Virus genome (UHGV): UHGV-0278008
Origin: a virus
Direction: 5' to 3' (one strand)
DNA length: 19,628 bases
A program made the translations under genes and the position numbers. Of the stretch, positions 3,025 through 17,091 are shown piece after piece. The first letter of the stretch is position 1. Every line of letters begins with the position of its first letter. Under the pieces are notes generated by a model. The model was not told where the DNA came from. It did not search any database and saw only the letters and a list, made by a program, of their open reading frames with translations.

Positions 3025-3030
3025 GCCCAT

Positions 3031-3055
3031 AAAAAAAGCCCCTCCGGAGAGGGGC
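3031..3055 (-). terminator. Intrinsic terminator, minus strand (end of TerB-like transcription unit)
   Basis: gcccctc/gaggggc stem with 4-nt loop; A7 on plus strand = U-run on minus. Confidence 0.5.
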
Positions 3056-3305
3056 TGACGCTGCGTATCTGTATCATCATGCGCATGGTGCCGGGTGCCT
3101 CCCGGTGAGTTCAGTCCGGTGTCCCTGAACCCGCGTATCTCGATCCAGGTTGTCGTCAGAGATGACACCTTATACACCAGTCGCCCCTCCGCACAGGGGG
3201 ATTCACCATGCGAAATTTTTTTAACAAATGCTCAGTCTGACAGGCAACTGTCAACTGACTGAATTGTGAGACATTTAAAATTTTCGGGGCATGACTGATA
3301 CCCGG

Positions 3306-3470: not shown

Positions 3471-3898
3471 AGGTGGTTCTCCAGTCGCAGGCCAAGAACA
3501 CCAGCAATCTCTTCCAGAACCTTACGCTCTTCCGGCTCAATTTCACCATCTGCTTCAGCAATGGCCACCGCCACATCCAGCACATCTTCCGCTTCACGCG
3601 TATCGTGTTTCACATCTTCAATTTCACGCAACGCCGATCGACGACCAATTTTAAAGTTGGTGTCAAGCTGACCTGTGATCGTGGCACTGATGGCATTAAT
3701 TTCTGACGTAAACGCGGACAACGCAGGCTGGTTACGCAAGACCTGCTCGATCTTCGCTTTCTCTGAAGCCTCACATTCACCATCTGCATAGGCTACCAGG
3801 TAGGCAGCATTAATAACCGCCTGTGCCAGATCGCGTTTCTCAAACTTTTTAATTTCCGCTGCCGCTCTGCGGGTTTTCTTTTTGAAAATACCAAACAT
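3467..3898 (-). CDS. TerB-like (tellurite-resistance TerB family) protein, 143 aa
   Basis: ATG at 3898..3896 with AAAGGAA SD; MFGIFKKKTRRAAAEIKKFEKRDLAQAVINAAYLVAYADGECEASEKAKIEQVL...EADGEIEPEERKVLEEIAGVLGL resembles TerB helical fold with ADGE repeats (recalled family features). Confidence 0.65.
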   Translation of the reverse strand: MFGIFKKKTRRAAAEIKKFEKRDLAQAVINAAYLVAYADGECEASEKAKIEQVLRNQPALSAFTSEINAISATITGQLDTNFKIGRRSALREIEDVKHDTREAEDVLDVAVAIAEADGEIEPEERKVLEEIAGVLGLRLENHL

Positions 3899-4030
3899 CG
3901 TGACGTTCCTTTGGGTGGGTGAGCCAACGCCCGGGAGCGATCTGCCCACAGAGAAAGTCACACTGACCACTCCGTAAGCTCACCCCCGAAAGGCTCTGTG
4001 GTTGATATGCGCCGGGCGTGGCGCGGATAC

Positions 4031-4054
4031 AAAAAAGGCCCGCAAAAGCGAGCC
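4031..4054 (-). terminator. Intrinsic terminator after tRNA cluster
   Basis: Minus-strand ggctcgc-tttt-gcgggcc hairpin followed by T6. Confidence 0.55.
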
Positions 4055-4068
4055 TGGTAAATAAATAT

Positions 4069-4145
4069 GGCGCGTTGTACTGGATTCGAACCAGTGACCG
4101 ATTGCTTAGAAGGCAATTGCTCTGTCCGGCTGAGCTAACAACGCA
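4069..4145 (-). tRNA. tRNA-Arg, anticodon UCU, CCA encoded
   Basis: Hand-folded cloverleaf: acceptor gcgttgt/acaacgc, D-arm gctc/gagc, anticodon loop cttCTaa, T-loop ttcgaat. Confidence 0.8.
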
Positions 4146-4158
4146 GTGTACCGATAAT

Positions 4159-4235
4159 GGACCGCCATCGAGGACTCGAACCCCGCGCAACCAGCTTCGA
4201 AGGCTGGCGCTCTGTCCCGATGAGCTAATGGCGGT
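4159..4235 (-). tRNA. tRNA-Arg, anticodon UCG, CCA encoded
   Basis: Acceptor ccgccat/atggcgg, anticodon loop ctTCGaa, T-arm cgggg-ttcgagt-cctcg. Confidence 0.75.
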
Positions 4236-4244
4236 ATGTGATAT

Positions 4245-4320
4245 GGTGGCCCTTGCTGGATTTGAACCAGCGACCTGGCGATTATGAGTCGCTCGCTCTC
4301 ACCACTGAGCTAAAGGGCCG
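4245..4320 (-). tRNA. tRNA with anticodon CAU (Ile2-type or Met), CCA encoded
   Basis: Acceptor ggccctt/aagggcc, D-arm gctc-agtggtga-gagc, anticodon loop ctCATaa, T-loop GGTTCAAATCC; same order as ileZ-argN-argO of Stx phages. Confidence 0.8.
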
Positions 4321-4359: not shown

Positions 4360-5418
4360 TCATCCGTTCTTACTGACTAAATCCTGAACTTCCCTGACCG
4401 TCTGCTCAAAACGTTCAGTCTCCAGCTCAACGCCAGTTGCACGACGTCCCAGCGCCATCGCTGCTTTGACTGTCGAACCCGACCCCATGAAAAAATCTGC
4501 AACCAGGTCACCCGGACGACTGCTCGCGCTGATTATCTGCTGCAGCATTTCTGCTGGTTTTTCGCACGGATGTTTCCCGGGATAGTACTGCACCGGTTTA
4601 TGCGTCCACACATCGGTGTACGGCACCTGCGCCGTCACGCCAAAATACCGCCGCAGATACTTATATTCACTCTGCAGTTCCGCATACTGCCGGTTCAGTT
4701 CACTGTATGTGCTGACCAGTTGGTGATGTGGCTTTTCCAGTTCTCCGCGCTGATGCTTCTCTTCTGCCACCCGGGCAAACAGCGCCTGTAATTTCAGATA
4801 ATCGCTTTCGTCCGGTAGCTGCCACTGGCTGGCACTGAACCAGTGCGACACCATGTTTTTCTTTCCTGTGGCATCAGCAATCTGTTTTGCCGTTATCCCC
4901 AGGGCAGCACGTGCATCACGAAAGTAAGAAATCAGCGGGGCCATCACATGCTGTTTCAGTGCCCTGCCCTTCGCCTCATACCCGGCATCTTTCGGGCGAT
5001 ACGGCCCCTGATAATGTTCCGCGAACAGAATGCGCTCTGTGGCGGGGAAATACGCCCGCAGGCTTTCCTTGTTGCACCCGTTCCAGCGTCCGGACGGCTT
5101 CGCCCAGATAATATGGTTCAGCACACTGAAGCGTTCACGCATCATGATTTCAATGTCAGACGCCAGGCGATGACCACAGAACAGGTAAAGACTTCCGGCA
5201 GGTTTCAGCACCCGCCAGAACTGCGCAAGACACTGGTCCAGCCATTTCAGGTAATCCTCATCCCCCGTCCACTGGTTATCCCAGCCCTCGGGCTTCACTT
5301 TAAAGTATGGCGGGTCTGTGACTATCAGATCGACAGAGTTTTCCGGTAAGGTCTGGATAAATTCCAGGCAATCAGCGTTGATTAGCTCACAACTGGATAT
5401 TTTTACAGTATTAGCCAT
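4360..5418 (-). CDS. DNA methyltransferase, beta-class (N6-adenine or N4-cytosine), orphan; 352 aa
   Basis: Motif IV DPPY near N-terminus (LIVTDPPYF) and motif I FxGxGST near C-terminus (DFFMGSGSTV); no adjacent restriction endonuclease. Confidence 0.85.
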   Translation of the reverse strand: MANTVKISSCELINADCLEFIQTLPENSVDLIVTDPPYFKVKPEGWDNQWTGDEDYLKWLDQCLAQFWRVLKPAGSLYLFCGHRLASDIEIMMRERFSVLNHIIWAKPSGRWNGCNKESLRAYFPATERILFAEHYQGPYRPKDAGYEAKGRALKQHVMAPLISYFRDARAALGITAKQIADATGKKNMVSHWFSASQWQLPDESDYLKLQALFARVAEEKHQRGELEKPHHQLVSTYSELNRQYAELQSEYKYLRRYFGVTAQVPYTDVWTHKPVQYYPGKHPCEKPAEMLQQIISASSRPGDLVADFFMGSGSTVKAAMALGRRATGVELETERFEQTVREVQDLVSKNG

Positions 5419-5982: not shown

Positions 5983-6555
5983 TTATTGATCAGTTTGCAA
6001 CATTTTTTTCTCTGTAACAAAAGCCATACGCATGGGGGCATGTAACATAAATTCAGATATCCCCAACCACTGATCAATTCGGCGTCTGCACGTAACCAAC
6101 GTCCACTCAGGATGATCTGCATTTAACCTTTCGGCCATTTTCAGTTTGCTCATTCCCCGTCCTTCGTACCTTTGCCGGAGAATATTGATTAGTCCGGGAT
6201 ATTCCCCAAGCACCTCACTGATAACGCGATCAATAATCAACGCCTCTGTGTCTGTACAATGTGACAACCAGCTCTTCTGCTTCCCTCTGGTCATATCCCG
6301 AAAAAATGCCTCAAGTTCCGGTTTATCCAGCCCGGATTTCTTCATTCTGCGTAAAACTTCATTAACTGCTGTTTTCGTCAGCTTTTTCGAAACCAGTAAC
6401 CGGTTAAACATATTTCCGGATTTACCCCCACCTATATACGACCACCGCCCCCACATCCGTAATTTCCCCTGGATCCAGACTGCTTCCAGCGTGTTCAGGC
6501 GTAAATGTTCGCCGCTTTTGCCTGTAATTTCCGGATATATCATATTTACGCTCAC
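5983..6555 (-). CDS. Putative late-gene antiterminator Q-like protein (190 aa)
   Basis: Immediately downstream of rusA with ATGA overlap and followed by promoter/terminator then late genes; W-G-R-W motif; family assignment from position and recall. Confidence 0.5.
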   Translation of the reverse strand: MSVNMIYPEITGKSGEHLRLNTLEAVWIQGKLRMWGRWSYIGGGKSGNMFNRLLVSKKLTKTAVNEVLRRMKKSGLDKPELEAFFRDMTRGKQKSWLSHCTDTEALIIDRVISEVLGEYPGLINILRQRYEGRGMSKLKMAERLNADHPEWTLVTCRRRIDQWLGISEFMLHAPMRMAFVTEKKMLQTDQ

Positions 6556-8415: not shown

Positions 8416-8571
8416 TTACTTCTCAGATTCGTAGTCTACGAAGACAGCAACCTCCGTCTGGCCGGTTCGGATTCGTACCTCGCAGAGGTCTTTCCTCGTT
8501 ACCAGTGCCGTCACTATGACGGTTAAACAGATGACGATCAGGGCGATTAACATCGCCTTTTGCTGCTTCAT
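8416..8571 (-). CDS. hok: Hok/Gef-family type I toxin (51 aa)
   Basis: MKQQKAMLIALIVICLTVIVTALVTRKDLCEVRIRTGQTEVAVF... is near-identical in pattern to HokD/HokC. Confidence 0.85.
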   Translation of the reverse strand: MKQQKAMLIALIVICLTVIVTALVTRKDLCEVRIRTGQTEVAVFVDYESEK

Positions 8572-8628
8572 AGTCTGCTTCTCCTTGACCTTTCGGTCCG
8601 TAAGAGGCAATCTATATGTGACGAGCAT
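8416..8628 (-). CDS. Mok-like in-frame N-terminally extended reading frame over hok (70 aa)
   Basis: ATG at 8628..8626 with GTGAGG SD; MLVTYRLPLTDRKVKEKQTM- extension resembles recalled MokC N-terminus. Confidence 0.45.
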   Translation of the reverse strand: MLVTYRLPLTDRKVKEKQTMKQQKAMLIALIVICLTVIVTALVTRKDLCEVRIRTGQTEVAVFVDYESEK

Positions 8629-8671
8629 ATAGGGGCCTCACTTCGATTTATAGTCGGGTGGGGCTTTTATC
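8600..8671 (+). ncRNA. Candidate Sok-like antisense RNA; 5' end not determined
   Basis: Plus-strand hairpin gcctcac (8634-8640) / gtggggc (8660-8666) plus U-run 8667-8670, antisense to the mok SD/start; TTGACC at 8585-8590 is a possible -35. Confidence 0.35.
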
Positions 8672-8816
8672 TATCTGCCGTTGGTGTTCATGCCCGAGGC
8701 AGATAGCCTCAAGCACCCGCAGCAATTTTACAAAAACAAACTATTATTTTCTATGTCCTTTCACTTGTCTCATTTCTGACTATACTGATCGCTCACACAA
8801 CACAAAAGGTATAAAA

Positions 8817-14492: not shown

Positions 14493-14912
14493 ATGGTTCA
14501 TGAAGATAAAGCGCGTAAAGAGTTCGCCAGTAGGCTTGCGCTAGCCTGTGAAAACGCTGGTTATGAACAACATGGAAGGCAGGCAGAAATTGCCCGTCGA
14601 ATGAAATTAACACCAAAAGCGGTTAGCAAATGGTTTAATGGCGAAACAATTCCTCGCCGGGAGAAATTAAGGGAATTAGCAACACTAATAGGAACAACAC
14701 CAACCTATCTTTTGGGAGAGGATACAGAAGAAAGTGGACAGGTACGTTTCTATCAGGAGTTAAATCCAAGACAAAAAATCATCATTGACCTTCTGGACGA
14801 ACTCCCTGACAGTGAGACAGATGAACTTTTAAAAACTCTTGAAGAGAAAAAACAGAAGTACAATGCAATTTACGAAGAGTTAGCACGAAAGAAAAAACAA
14901 AAAGCCTCTTAA
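14493..14912 (+). CDS. DicA/RacR-like HTH (XRE) prophage repressor, 139 aa
   Basis: HTH RQAEIARRMKLTPKAVSKWFNGE; C-terminal LLDELPDSE...EEL region resembles DicA; weak SD. Confidence 0.75.
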   Translation: MVHEDKARKEFASRLALACENAGYEQHGRQAEIARRMKLTPKAVSKWFNGETIPRREKLRELATLIGTTPTYLLGEDTEESGQVRFYQELNPRQKIIIDLLDELPDSETDELLKTLEEKKQKYNAIYEELARKKKQKAS

Positions 14913-14984: not shown

Positions 14985-15035
14985 CAAAATGTACTAAAAG
15001 TACTTTACAGCAATGAACAAAAAGTACATTATATA
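14985..15035. promoter_or_regulatory. OL-like operator/promoter region upstream of early-left operon
   Basis: Three further copies of the AGTACAT/ATGTACT half-site (14989-14995, 14999-15005, 15023-15029) around TTTACA and -10-like hexamers. Confidence 0.45.
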
Positions 15036-15204: not shown

Positions 15205-15357
15205 ATGGATACGCTCAATCTTGGCAACAACGAATCTCTGGTATGCGGTGTGTTCCCTAACCAGGACGGCACGTTTACCGCGATGACGTATACCAAAAGT
15301 AAAAAGTTTAAAACCGAAGCTGGCGCGCGTCGCTGGTTAGCCAGAAACACTAACTGA
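15205..15357 (+). CDS. Small protein, YdfA/YdaF-like (50 aa); not in ORF track
   Basis: ATG at 15205 with GAGG SD 5 nt upstream; MDTLNLGNNESLVCGVFPNQDGTFTAMTYTKSKKFKTEAGARRWLARNTN; TGA at 15355. Confidence 0.6.
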   Translation: MDTLNLGNNESLVCGVFPNQDGTFTAMTYTKSKKFKTEAGARRWLARNTN

Positions 15358-15608
15358 TTAGCACCAGTAAAAACAGGTTGCCACTGGTTAATTTACCCTG
15401 AAAAGTCAGGGTATAACACGAAAGCGCACGGCGAAGCTCTTTCCCTTAGAAGGCTTGTCGTTAGATTTCTTCGAGCGTGCGCTTCCGGTTGTGGCAATCC
15501 GCGAAATGGCGCGGCGGTAAGTATGGCTGGGGTTTCCTCCATTGCTCCAGAAAATGCACCGGGTTGTCAGGTTGACCATACGATTAAGTGACAGCCCCGC
15601 CACAATAC

Positions 15609-15666
15609 CCATGTGTAGTCTTTGGTGGCATCAGTTCTACTCCGTGACTGCTCTGCCACCCTTTTT
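15609..15666 (+). ncRNA. dicF: DicF-like sRNA (3' two-thirds conserved, including terminator)
   Basis: GGTGGCATCAGTTCTACTCCGTGACTGCTCTGCCACCC+TTTTT closely matches recalled DicF 3' region GGCGGUAUCAGUUUUACUCCGUGACUGCUCUGCCGCCCUUUUU; 5' boundary uncertain. Confidence 0.6.
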
Positions 15667-16149
15667 AAAGTGAATTTTGTGATGCGGTGAATGCGGCTAA
15701 GCGCACGCGGAACAGTTAAAACAAGCGGTCTTTTACTGGCGTAACAGACATCAACTAACAATCCGGCGTTAATTGTTAACTGGTTAACGTCACCTGGAGG
15801 CACCAGGCACTGCATCAACAAAGTTCACTTCGGTGATGAAGGGTAAGAGAAAATGTTGAATGTAGCTATTGAAAACCAGAATGGGTGGAATTATAGTGCA
15901 CCTGCACCTCATAAAGCGGGTGCCGGGCGTGGAAACCCGATGATGACTACTGCGCATAACCGCGCTCAGGCGGTTTTTTTATGCGTAATGCACAGCCACA
16001 TTCAGATTATGGTGGGGCGTGCAGGGCAGCCGAAAGGCTGGCCGGTTTCGGTAGTCACCGGTATTTCCACCCCTGTACGTCTCACCACCCTTATGGTCGT
16101 GGAAAGCCTTGGTGGTGAGTTATTTAAACTGACTATCGAGGCTGCCATC

Positions 16150-16707
16150 ATGGCTACTATCCCTGCCCTTTCTCACCCTGACGTAACCATCGAAAATGGA
16201 CGCGCTGTCACTACGTCTATTGCGATCGCTGAGTTCTTTGGTAAACGCCACGAACGAGTGTTGGATAAAATTCGCAATCTGGACTGTTCAGCAAAATTCA
16301 CTGAGCACAATTTTGTGTCGAGCGAATATACCGACTCAACCAGTCGCAAACTCCCAATGTACCAAATCACCAAAAACGGCTTCGTTTTCCTGGTGATGGG
16401 CTTCACCGGCAAAAAAGCCGCTGCATTTAAAGAAGCCTACATCGCTGAGTTCGATCGCATGGAGAAAGAACTGCGCCAGAATAACGCCCCGTCTCCCGAC
16501 AAAATGATTCACGGGGACGGACGTACCATGGTTATCCGTCTCGACGAACACGGCAATATCAAATTCACTGAAACCGTTCCGGACGGCGCAATGGTCTGCA
16601 CCCTGGATACCTTCCAGTTTTACCTGGAGAAACAAGGCTGGACTCTTGTAAACCGGAGCGCAATTAAAAATATGACTGTGGAGCAATTACTAAAAATTCA
16701 TTGTTGA
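16150..16707 (+). CDS. Rha / ORF6N-domain phage regulatory protein (185 aa from ATG 16150; ORF open from 15853)
   Basis: GAGG SD before ATG 16150; ORF6N/Rha-like motif VTTSIAIAEFFGKRHERVLDKIRNL; upstream in-frame region contains a terminator-like hairpin. Confidence 0.6.
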   Translation: MATIPALSHPDVTIENGRAVTTSIAIAEFFGKRHERVLDKIRNLDCSAKFTEHNFVSSEYTDSTSRKLPMYQITKNGFVFLVMGFTGKKAAAFKEAYIAEFDRMEKELRQNNAPSPDKMIHGDGRTMVIRLDEHGNIKFTETVPDGAMVCTLDTFQFYLEKQGWTLVNRSAIKNMTVEQLLKIHC

Positions 16708-16717
16708 GGACGCGATA

Positions 16718-16906
16718 ATGGAAACGTTATTACCAAACGTTAATACGTCTGAAGGGTGTTTTGATATTGGTGTTCTGCTCAGTAACCGGGAGTTTACTGA
16801 AGATGCCATTAAGATGAGAAAATATGAGCCTTATCTTCTCAATGATAATTCCATACTCTCCAGAATTGCCCTTCTTGAACTTGGTATTTTCGGAGAACAT
16901 CAATGA
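16718..16906 (+). CDS. dicB: DicB-like cell-division inhibitor (62 aa)
   Basis: METLLPNVNTSEGCFDIGVLLSNREFTEDAIKMRK... matches recalled DicB N-terminus (MKTLLPNVNTSEGCFEIGV...); GAGGA SD. Confidence 0.8.
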   Translation: METLLPNVNTSEGCFDIGVLLSNREFTEDAIKMRKYEPYLLNDNSILSRIALLELGIFGEHQ

Positions 16907-17091
16907 CTTCAGCATTTGCACTGGTGATGACGGTTTTTCTTATAACGGGTGAATCACAGAATGTGATTACCGGAATTTATGCCAGTAAAGAATCCTGCCT
17001 CCAGGCAAGAGACGAGCAAAAAATTTCTGGTGAATGCCTCCCGTTAAAAAAAGTATCGCTGTACCTGAATAACGAAACACCGGCTGGATAA
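16903..17091 (+). CDS. YdfD-like small protein with N-terminal hydrophobic segment (62 aa)
   Basis: ATGA overlap with dicB-like stop; MTSAFALVMTVFLITGE...; position as ydfD in Qin. Confidence 0.55.
   Translation: MTSAFALVMTVFLITGESQNVITGIYASKESCLQARDEQKISGECLPLKKVSLYLNNETPAG

Follow-up and report, generated by a model that had tools for sequence, protein, structure and literature searches.

DicF, a prophage small RNA (sRNA) that stops cells from dividing by silencing ftsZ, is among the oldest known bacterial sRNAs and serves as a model of how prophages govern the division and metabolism of their host and, in EHEC, its virulence. In the literature and in annotations it figures as a single sequence, whereas the sequences analysed here fall into three discrete E. 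coli classes. The locus described below raises the question of what such a regulator becomes when its 3' half is kept and its 5' segment is replaced. It lies in a 19,628-nt stretch of viral DNA (UHGV-0278008), referred to as the window and analysed over its full length. The classes are defined in the present analysis: class 1 is the K-12 type, class 2 the window-type allele, and class 3 a Rac-type lineage.

The reading put forward here, to which a probability of about 75% is given, is that of a natural mosaic DicF allele. By its sequence, the allele belongs to the DicF family and occupies its operon slot, conserves the parts used for pairing with ftsZ, pykA, and manX, and carries a different 5' arm; the ftsZ function would be kept, the control of xylR lost, and the processing of the 5' end altered. 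The features on which this reading draws are collected in Table 1.

Table 1. Features of the DicF locus, in window coordinates.
Feature	Position	Strand	Evidence
DicA-like HTH repressor gene	14493-14912	+	Pfam HTH_3; annotation of the identical STEC1590 locus; layout as K-12 dicA
Candidate operon promoter TTTACA-17-CATTAT, between repressor gene and ydfA-like gene	15004-15032	+	Consensus scan, 9/12 match
ydfA-like DUF1391 gene, heading the operon	15205-15357	+	Pfam DUF1391, E = 1.5e-29
Conserved structured precursor directly upstream of DicF	15487-15607	+	Alignment of 87 precursors; folds
5' arm of bracketing stem, CCGCCACAA, can pair with 15677-15687	15597-15605	+	Folds
Predicted single-stranded 5' arm, CCAUGUGUAGUCUUU	15609-15623	+	Alignment to K-12; MFE fold with 15 unpaired 5' nt
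DicF	15610-15661	+	Rfam RF00039
Replaced segment AUGUGUAGUC, standing for 24 nt of K-12	15611-15620	+	Alignment to K-12
Block common with class 3 DicF, UGUGUAGUC	from 15612	+	Pooled class 2+3 conservation
Bipartite hairpin, outer stem GGUGGCA/UGCCACC, inner stem CAGU/ACUG	15624-15660	+	Rfam structure line; fold
Published ftsZ/pykA/manX-pairing sequences, UACUCCGUGACUGCUCUGCC	~15638-15657	+	Identical in K-12
Terminal C and U5 run, 3' terminus of the 53-nt form, set by Rho-independent termination	15661-15666	+	Sequence; identical in K-12
3' arm of predicted long-range stem bracketing DicF, UUGUGAUGCGG	15677-15687	+	RNAalifold pairs, columns 139-149/236-246
Inserted module between dicF and dicB: isrK-like RNA, C4 antisense RNA, Rha-domain regulator	15853-16707	+	Rfam; Pfam Phage_pRha, aa 120-205
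isrK-like RNA	15904-15980	+	Rfam isrK, 63.5 bits
C4 antisense RNA	16005-16092	+	Rfam C4, 79.3 bits
dicB, protein inhibitor of cell division	16718-16906	+	Pfam DicB full length, E = 4.8e-37
ydfD-like DUF1482 gene	16903-17091	+	Pfam DUF1482
Exonuclease gene	from 17184 onward	+	Local gene order

Identity, alignment, and operon setting

The Rfam DicF model (RF00039) matches the element over all of its positions (1-52 of 52) with 61.1 bits, the gathering score being 48 bits, and with E = 1.8e-11 over the whole window. The other class 2 loci score 58.9-62 bits, class 2 as a whole (59-62 bits) lying about 15 bits below the K-12 type (72-77 bits). The predicted fold has a minimum free energy (MFE) of -15.8 kcal/mol, against -15.9 kcal/mol for K-12 DicF, and shows the same dot-bracket layout of an unpaired 5' arm, a bipartite hairpin, and a U-run. 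The hairpin also serves as the stem of an intrinsic terminator, and the U5 tail is, by analogy with K-12, the expected Hfq-binding tail. Across 87 unique sequences, the stem pairs of the hairpin are 99.7-99.8% pairable, and one pair is altered on both sides (CG in 79, UA in 7). No measure of covariation rises above the column-shuffle control in these 87 sequences, either for the hairpin or for the bracketing stem described below, because they are too similar to each other. The loop and 3' stem retain the anti-ftsZ sequence, which is the published pairing region, and the element sits in a dicBF-type early-left operon under a DicA-type repressor (repressor, DUF1391, DicF, dicB, DUF1482). Because Rfam score, fold, and operon context agree, the element is assigned to the DicF family, as the original prediction had proposed.

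The reference for alignment was the annotated K-12 dicF ncRNA of the Qin prophage (b1574; L001:2383-2435). From TTTGG to CCC (15621-15661, 41 nt), the window is identical to it at 37 positions; the differences fall on DicF nt 18, 21, 29, and 50, nt 18 and 50 forming a compensatory stem change from C-G in K-12 to U-A in the window. Only 2 of the 12 nt that precede this part (15609-15620) are identical. Between a conserved CCC and the TTTGG, K-12 has 24 nt, TCTGTTATCAATTTTCTGGTGACG, and the window 10 unrelated nt, ATGTGTAGTC. The flanks are again ~90-95% identical over ~130 nt upstream and more than 60 nt downstream, the T-run and at least 55 nt beyond being nearly identical, and the divergence of the arm is therefore a sharply bounded patch. 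The contrast drawn originally between a conserved 3' stem-terminator and a diverged 5' segment is borne out by these counts (37/41 against 2/12), and it survives correct alignment, the realigned 5' segment not being identical to that of K-12. The lengths attached to it were slightly off: the "38 nt" and "about 15 nt" are in fact 41 and 12, to which a length difference of 14 nt is to be added. The interval then proposed, 15609-15666, corresponds to the equivalent of the 53-nt K-12 RNA followed by the T-run 15662-15666.

By its sequence, the window is DNA of a lambdoid E. coli prophage. Over 501 nt around the element, it matches the chromosomes of STEC1590, STEC1589, and CP55_Sichuan with 100% identity, and the counterpart region of STEC1590 is a lambdoid prophage adjoining a tRNA-Ser gene and mtfA. 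The gene order is that of the K-12 Qin dicBF operon, except that dicF and dicB are separated by an additional module of antirepressor type, which other class 2 loci such as HS13-1 lack. The DicA-like gene encodes the immunity repressor of the prophage, which is presumed to repress the dicBF-type operon as well. Promoter-like sites in the region are not more numerous than in shuffled sequences in a consensus scan, so that the operon promoter at 15004-15032 is a tentative assignment.

Distribution of the classes and the mosaic pattern of class 2

A 45-nt query across the class 2 junction (15596-15640) hits 180 of 5,426 complete E. coli genomes, 160 of these 180 with an identical match. The K-12-type junction occurs in 3,848 of the 5,426 genomes, at 6,113 places. 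The class 2 arrangement recurs in 43 independent class 2 loci and, judged from these occurrences, the window allele is a recurrent allele rather than a one-off mutation. Among 50,697 deposited phage genomes, the class 2 junction was not found and class 1 was present in 21; none of 30 sampled class 2 genomes was O157:H7. In a pattern scan of species-representative genomes, DicF appeared only in Escherichia and Shigella and in three metagenome bins, the pattern being strict in the 3' half, so that it missed class 3 and that further classes with a different core could exist. The three bins (L006, L007, and L008, labelled Veillonella parvula, "Proteobacteria bacterium", and Collinsella sp.) hold a canonical E. 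coli-type DicF, and their contigs are probably mis-binned E. coli prophage contigs.

Classes 1 and 2 are discrete, with no intermediates at the indel among 128 DicF loci from viral contigs and genomes, and the alignment of 87 unique precursors also gives two discrete classes. In class 2, the short arm always goes together with the compensatory stem pair and with C instead of U in the loop. Its core occurs on both haplotypes of a variable patch ~60 nt upstream, and in at least three prophage backgrounds that differ in their genes for immunity and replication and in whether they have the isrK/C4/Rha module and ydfC. Classes may also coexist in one genome: at least two IMG genomes carry classes 1 and 2, at least four carry classes 1 and 3, and at least one carries two class 2 copies.

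Class 3 came to light in a scan excluding the class 1 arm, which returned 73 viral loci, ~43 of class 2 and 32 of class 3. It reads GGUUGUAAAUAACGACAUUGCU-[A/U/G]UGUGUAGUC-UUUGGCGGCAUCAGUUCUACUCCGUGGCUGCCCUGCCGCCCC-UUUUU, scores 54.6-63.5 bits with the Rfam DicF model (cut-off 48), and is present in 93 of the 5,426 complete E. coli genomes. About 5% of these genomes (180 + 93 of 5,426) carry a DicF with a different, conserved 5' seed. The class 3 loci are in Rac-type prophages with the order repressor, DUF1391, DicF, kil, ydaE, recE, recT, as exemplified by L136, L138, L166, and L204 (E. coli 2013C-4974, 4001-4074), and RalA is often nearby. Here, the sRNA is paired with kil, another FtsZ inhibitor, in the same operon slot as dicF/dicB and with a different protein.

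A three-way alignment shows how class 2 is composed. With class 3, it shares the arm UGUGUAGUC-UUUGG, a C at nt 21 (GGC before AUCAG), and a C in the loop at nt 29 (UUCU), and the downstream leader is the same. In its upstream precursor, at nt 38 and 43, and at its 3' end, it agrees with class 1. The U-A pair at nt 18/50 is specific to class 2. Class 3 differs from the window allele by an unrelated and shorter upstream precursor, by a diverged 3' half (GUGGCUGCCCUGCCGCCCC), and by having kil/recET, not dicB, downstream. Since arm and loop are common with class 3 and the remainder is as in class 1, class 2 looks like a recombinant, or mosaic, in which the arm and loop of class 3 are set on the precursor and 3' half of class 1. 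Class 2 would in this way illustrate the exchange of a seed by recombination between phage lineages.

When classes 2 and 3 are pooled, conservation per position is ~50% upstream and rises to 80-99% from TGTGTAGTC (block UGUGUAGUC) onward, with a sharp boundary, and the upstream flanks of the two classes are unrelated. The polymorphisms seen within the arm are AUGCGUAGUC, AUGUGUAGUA, and GUGUCUAGUC. No fourth arm type was found within the core TTTGGNGGNATCAGNTNTACTCC in the viral loci scanned. From this alignment, the class 2 arm is best described as an established alternative DicF arm and not as random divergence, and its conservation between the two classes strengthens the idea that its function is different.

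Pairing capacity of the arms and of the hairpin

The premise that distinct regions of DicF serve different mRNAs is documented in the literature. In published mutational analyses, ftsZ and pykA are paired by the 3' region and xylR by the 5' end, at a site within its first ten codons (PMC5069750); for manX, the pairing part is the 3' end (PMC5861419). In duplex predictions, nt 4-18 of K-12 DicF pair with xylR +7..+21 (codons 3-7) through 13 contiguous bp at -20.3 kcal/mol. At the same site, the duplex reaches -9.5 kcal/mol with class 2 and -9.7 kcal/mol with class 3. A set of 1,000 shuffled arms gives -10.5 ± 2.1 kcal/mol, none of them reaching -20.3 kcal/mol, and the class 2 arm stands at their 66th percentile. 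The cofold ΔΔG for xylR follows the same order, with -15.3 kcal/mol for K-12, -3.7 for class 2, and -3.2 for class 3. For this one target, computation thus supports the altered repertoire that had been proposed for the diverged 5' segment. Since 5,386 of the 5,426 genomes keep the xylR site at 99% identity or more, the predicted loss of pairing extends to the whole species. Going by these energies, class 2 DicF probably no longer pairs with xylR or regulates it.

Pairing through the 3' region to ftsZ, pykA, and manX is predicted to be kept in class 2. For ftsZ, the cofold ΔΔG is -13.9 kcal/mol with K-12, somewhat weaker (-10.2) with class 2, and -12.2 with class 3. The corresponding values are -9.7, -12.5, and -12.8 kcal/mol for pykA, and -13.0, -13.4, and -9.7 kcal/mol for manX. 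Hybrid-only energies computed with DicF nt 16-53 are -29.2 (K-12) and -27.7 kcal/mol (class 2) for the RBS region of ftsZ, and -27.8 and -29.6 kcal/mol for pykA; for manX, class 2 is the weaker of the two (-28.1 against -33.9 kcal/mol).

A broader proposal can be built on these two sets of results, and is advanced tentatively, at odds short of even. DicF would be a two-module regulator, in which a constant ftsZ-silencing hairpin is combined with an exchangeable 5' seed cassette. At least two arms would circulate, one being the xylR-pairing arm of K-12 and the other, UGUGUAGUC, that of classes 2 and 3; the latter would address other host mRNAs. If so, strains with both kinds of arm would have a wider DicF regulon, and class 2 would be a natural separation-of-function allele in which ftsZ is kept and xylR lost. 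If the new arm does have targets of its own, DicF regulons would differ between strains, a difference hidden by annotation as "DicF" at the Rfam level. Classes 2 and 3 provide, in any case, ready-made separation-of-function variants for asking which seed serves toxicity, xylose, filamentation, or virulence; the arm sequence of both classes to be used as input for target prediction is UGUGUAGUCUUUGG.

The arm could instead be a neutral by-product of prophage recombination, without targets of its own, with class 2 DicF working through its conserved 3' region only. Several observations go in this direction. Neither the window nor 1.9 Mb of prophage loci contain sites complementary to the new arm beyond chance expectation. 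The arm (CCAUGUGU) is perfectly complementary over 8 nt to manX +26..+33, beside the known DicF site, but at a level expected by chance, 416 of 5,000 shuffles (8.3%) giving as much over four windows. A few arm positions are polymorphic. Finally, lambdoid prophages are mosaic, and the class 2 core has clearly recombined among backgrounds. A neutral arm would, however, hardly be expected to stay 80-99% conserved over two lineages whose upstream flanks are unrelated, with conservation setting in sharply at UGUGUAGUC. Nor would the 45-nt junction be expected to be 100% identical in 160 of 180 genomes, and the equivalent arm of K-12 is a proven seed. A purely neutral arm is therefore considered unlikely, albeit an explanation of some weight.

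Formation of the 5' end and proposed course of events

The RNase E consensus, reportedly described by Chao et al. in 2017, is RN|WUU. The 5' end of K-12 DicF, AAU|UUUCUGG, fits this consensus. Its context AAU|UUUC sits inside the 24 nt that are replaced, and is gone from class 2. A motif scan found no full RN|WUU match in the class 2 linker, in which partial motifs are present. As the replacement removes the AU-rich RNase E site, class 2 is predicted to form its 5' end in another way than K-12, where the 53-nt DicF results from termination at the hairpin and 5' processing by RNase E (PMC5069750, PMC9438474). K-12 also yields a 72-nt form, produced by RNase III from a read-through transcript (PMC5069750).

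DicF is bracketed by a predicted long-range stem, the 3' arm of which falls where, in the published work, RNase III generates the 3' end of the 72-nt species (53 + 19 nt). This stem is 98-100% pairable (99.3%), against 21-57% in slid registers, with no significant covariation. Three of the four class 2 substitutions within it keep the pairing. It is found in the MFE structures of all three classes, with three different 5' arms, the fold z-scores of the short precursors not being significant. The distance from the bracketing stem to the arm is ~5 nt in class 2 and ~19 nt in K-12. With the arm so close to the stem, an RNase III cut within it could define the 5' end of the class 2 RNA, and the arm of the mature RNA may be longer or shorter than drawn here, or absent.

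These features also bear on a different explanation, in which the class 2 allele is not matured to a stable sRNA. It would then act mainly as an intra-operon terminator or attenuator ahead of the Rha module and dicB, or would give rise to longer, possibly inactive precursors. The position of AAU|UUUC within the replaced 24 nt, the lack of a full RN|WUU in the class 2 linker, and the hairpin with its U5, which is an intrinsic-terminator structure, are in line with it. A terminator would not, however, need anti-ftsZ sequences conserved to such an extent, the loop and 3' stem differing at 2 positions only. Alternative routes to a mature RNA are possible, through the RNase III cut in the bracketing stem or through the partial RNase E motifs, and the allele persists in 180 genomes without decay. 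Failure to mature is, on balance, improbable. As to a resemblance to DicF by chance or artefact, or a 5' difference created by alignment, it is refuted with near certainty by the full-length Rfam match (E = 1.8e-11), by the alignment to K-12, in which the flanks align at ~90-95% and the arm does not, by the alignment of 87 precursors, by synteny with the K-12 dicBF operon, and by the repetition of the arrangement in 43 independent class 2 loci.

Under the preferred reading of a mosaic allele, the course of events would be as follows. Upon relief of repression, the operon transcript would end at the DicF hairpin and U-run or, alternatively, a read-through transcript would be cut by RNase III in the bracketing stem, both by analogy with K-12. 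Again by analogy, the class 2 RNA would bind Hfq and repress the translation of ftsZ via its loop and 3' stem, adding to the action of the protein division inhibitor DicB encoded downstream. Control of xylR, being dependent on the 5' arm of K-12, would be lost; the new arm is predicted to address other mRNAs, and the 5' end to be formed in another way than in K-12.

The closest known system is DicF of the K-12 Qin prophage, which occupies the same operon slot (repressor, ydfA, dicF, dicB, ydfD). Both RNAs combine a single-stranded arm of ~15 nt, a bipartite hairpin, and a U-run, with a conserved precursor before them and a conserved leader after them. The window allele differs by its replaced arm, by a linker 14 nt shorter, by having neither the RNase E context nor the complementarity to xylR, by the stem change C-G to U-A, and by the loop change U to C. 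In EHEC O157:H7, multi-copy DicF (Melson and Kendall 2019, as summarised in PMC7873438) activates pchA and represses stx2, the copies being treated as one regulator in that summary. The present loci resemble it in being prophage-borne and in the presence of several copies per genome; here, the copies may also be of mixed classes. The 2016 survey of DicF took in only copies more than 99% identical. In the searchable literature, whose coverage is incomplete so that an earlier description is possible, natural variants of the DicF arm were not found, the full texts containing laboratory mutants only.

A parallel outside the family is offered by 3'UTR-derived or intra-operonic sRNAs with an evolving seed, such as SdhX, whose targetomes diverge between lineages (PMC9438474). 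Like DicF, they are carved from an operon transcript by termination and RNase processing, and their sequence varies outside a constant part. Class 2 DicF differs from them in that its arm was swapped between phage lineages as a discrete cassette, as it were, instead of drifting gradually, and in that the constant part is itself a second seed, for ftsZ.

Other elements of the prophage deserve mention. RefSeq homologues of the Rha region (15853-16707, plus strand) annotate a single "Rha family" CDS of 284 aa, in which the Rha domain covers aa 120-205 only. The first ~100 codons overlie the isrK and C4 RNA genes and match Pfam Phage_ASH (aa 14-109), and in-frame ATGs are found just past C4, at 16093 and 16150. 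Either this stretch has a dual coding role, or the CDS extends too far and the Pfam family lies on RNA genes. In E. coli strain 7/2 (L134), the Rha gene is preceded by a 5' fragment of dicB (3636-3719), annotated as a pseudogene, and followed by an intact dicB (4615-4803), which suggests that the isrK/C4/Rha module came in by insertion into the leader or start of dicB, with duplication.

The ~190-nt leader directly 3' of DicF (window 15673-15822, plus strand) resembles Rfam STnc100, with 31 bits for a cut-off of 47. The leaders of class 3 loci (e.g., L136:6046-6235, minus strand) reach 39-46 bits, also below that cut-off. A full STnc100 copy (161.5 bits) is found at 3025-3240 on the minus strand, in the late region of the prophage and downstream of three tRNA genes. 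An STnc100-like element in both the early-left leader and the late region may be a cis-acting leader or antitermination element. The minus strand also carries a sok antitoxin RNA of the hok/sok type (8569-8718, 104.6 bits), and the three tRNA genes (4071-4319) are placed downstream of the region of the Q antiterminator, as they are in lambdoid phages of the Stx type.
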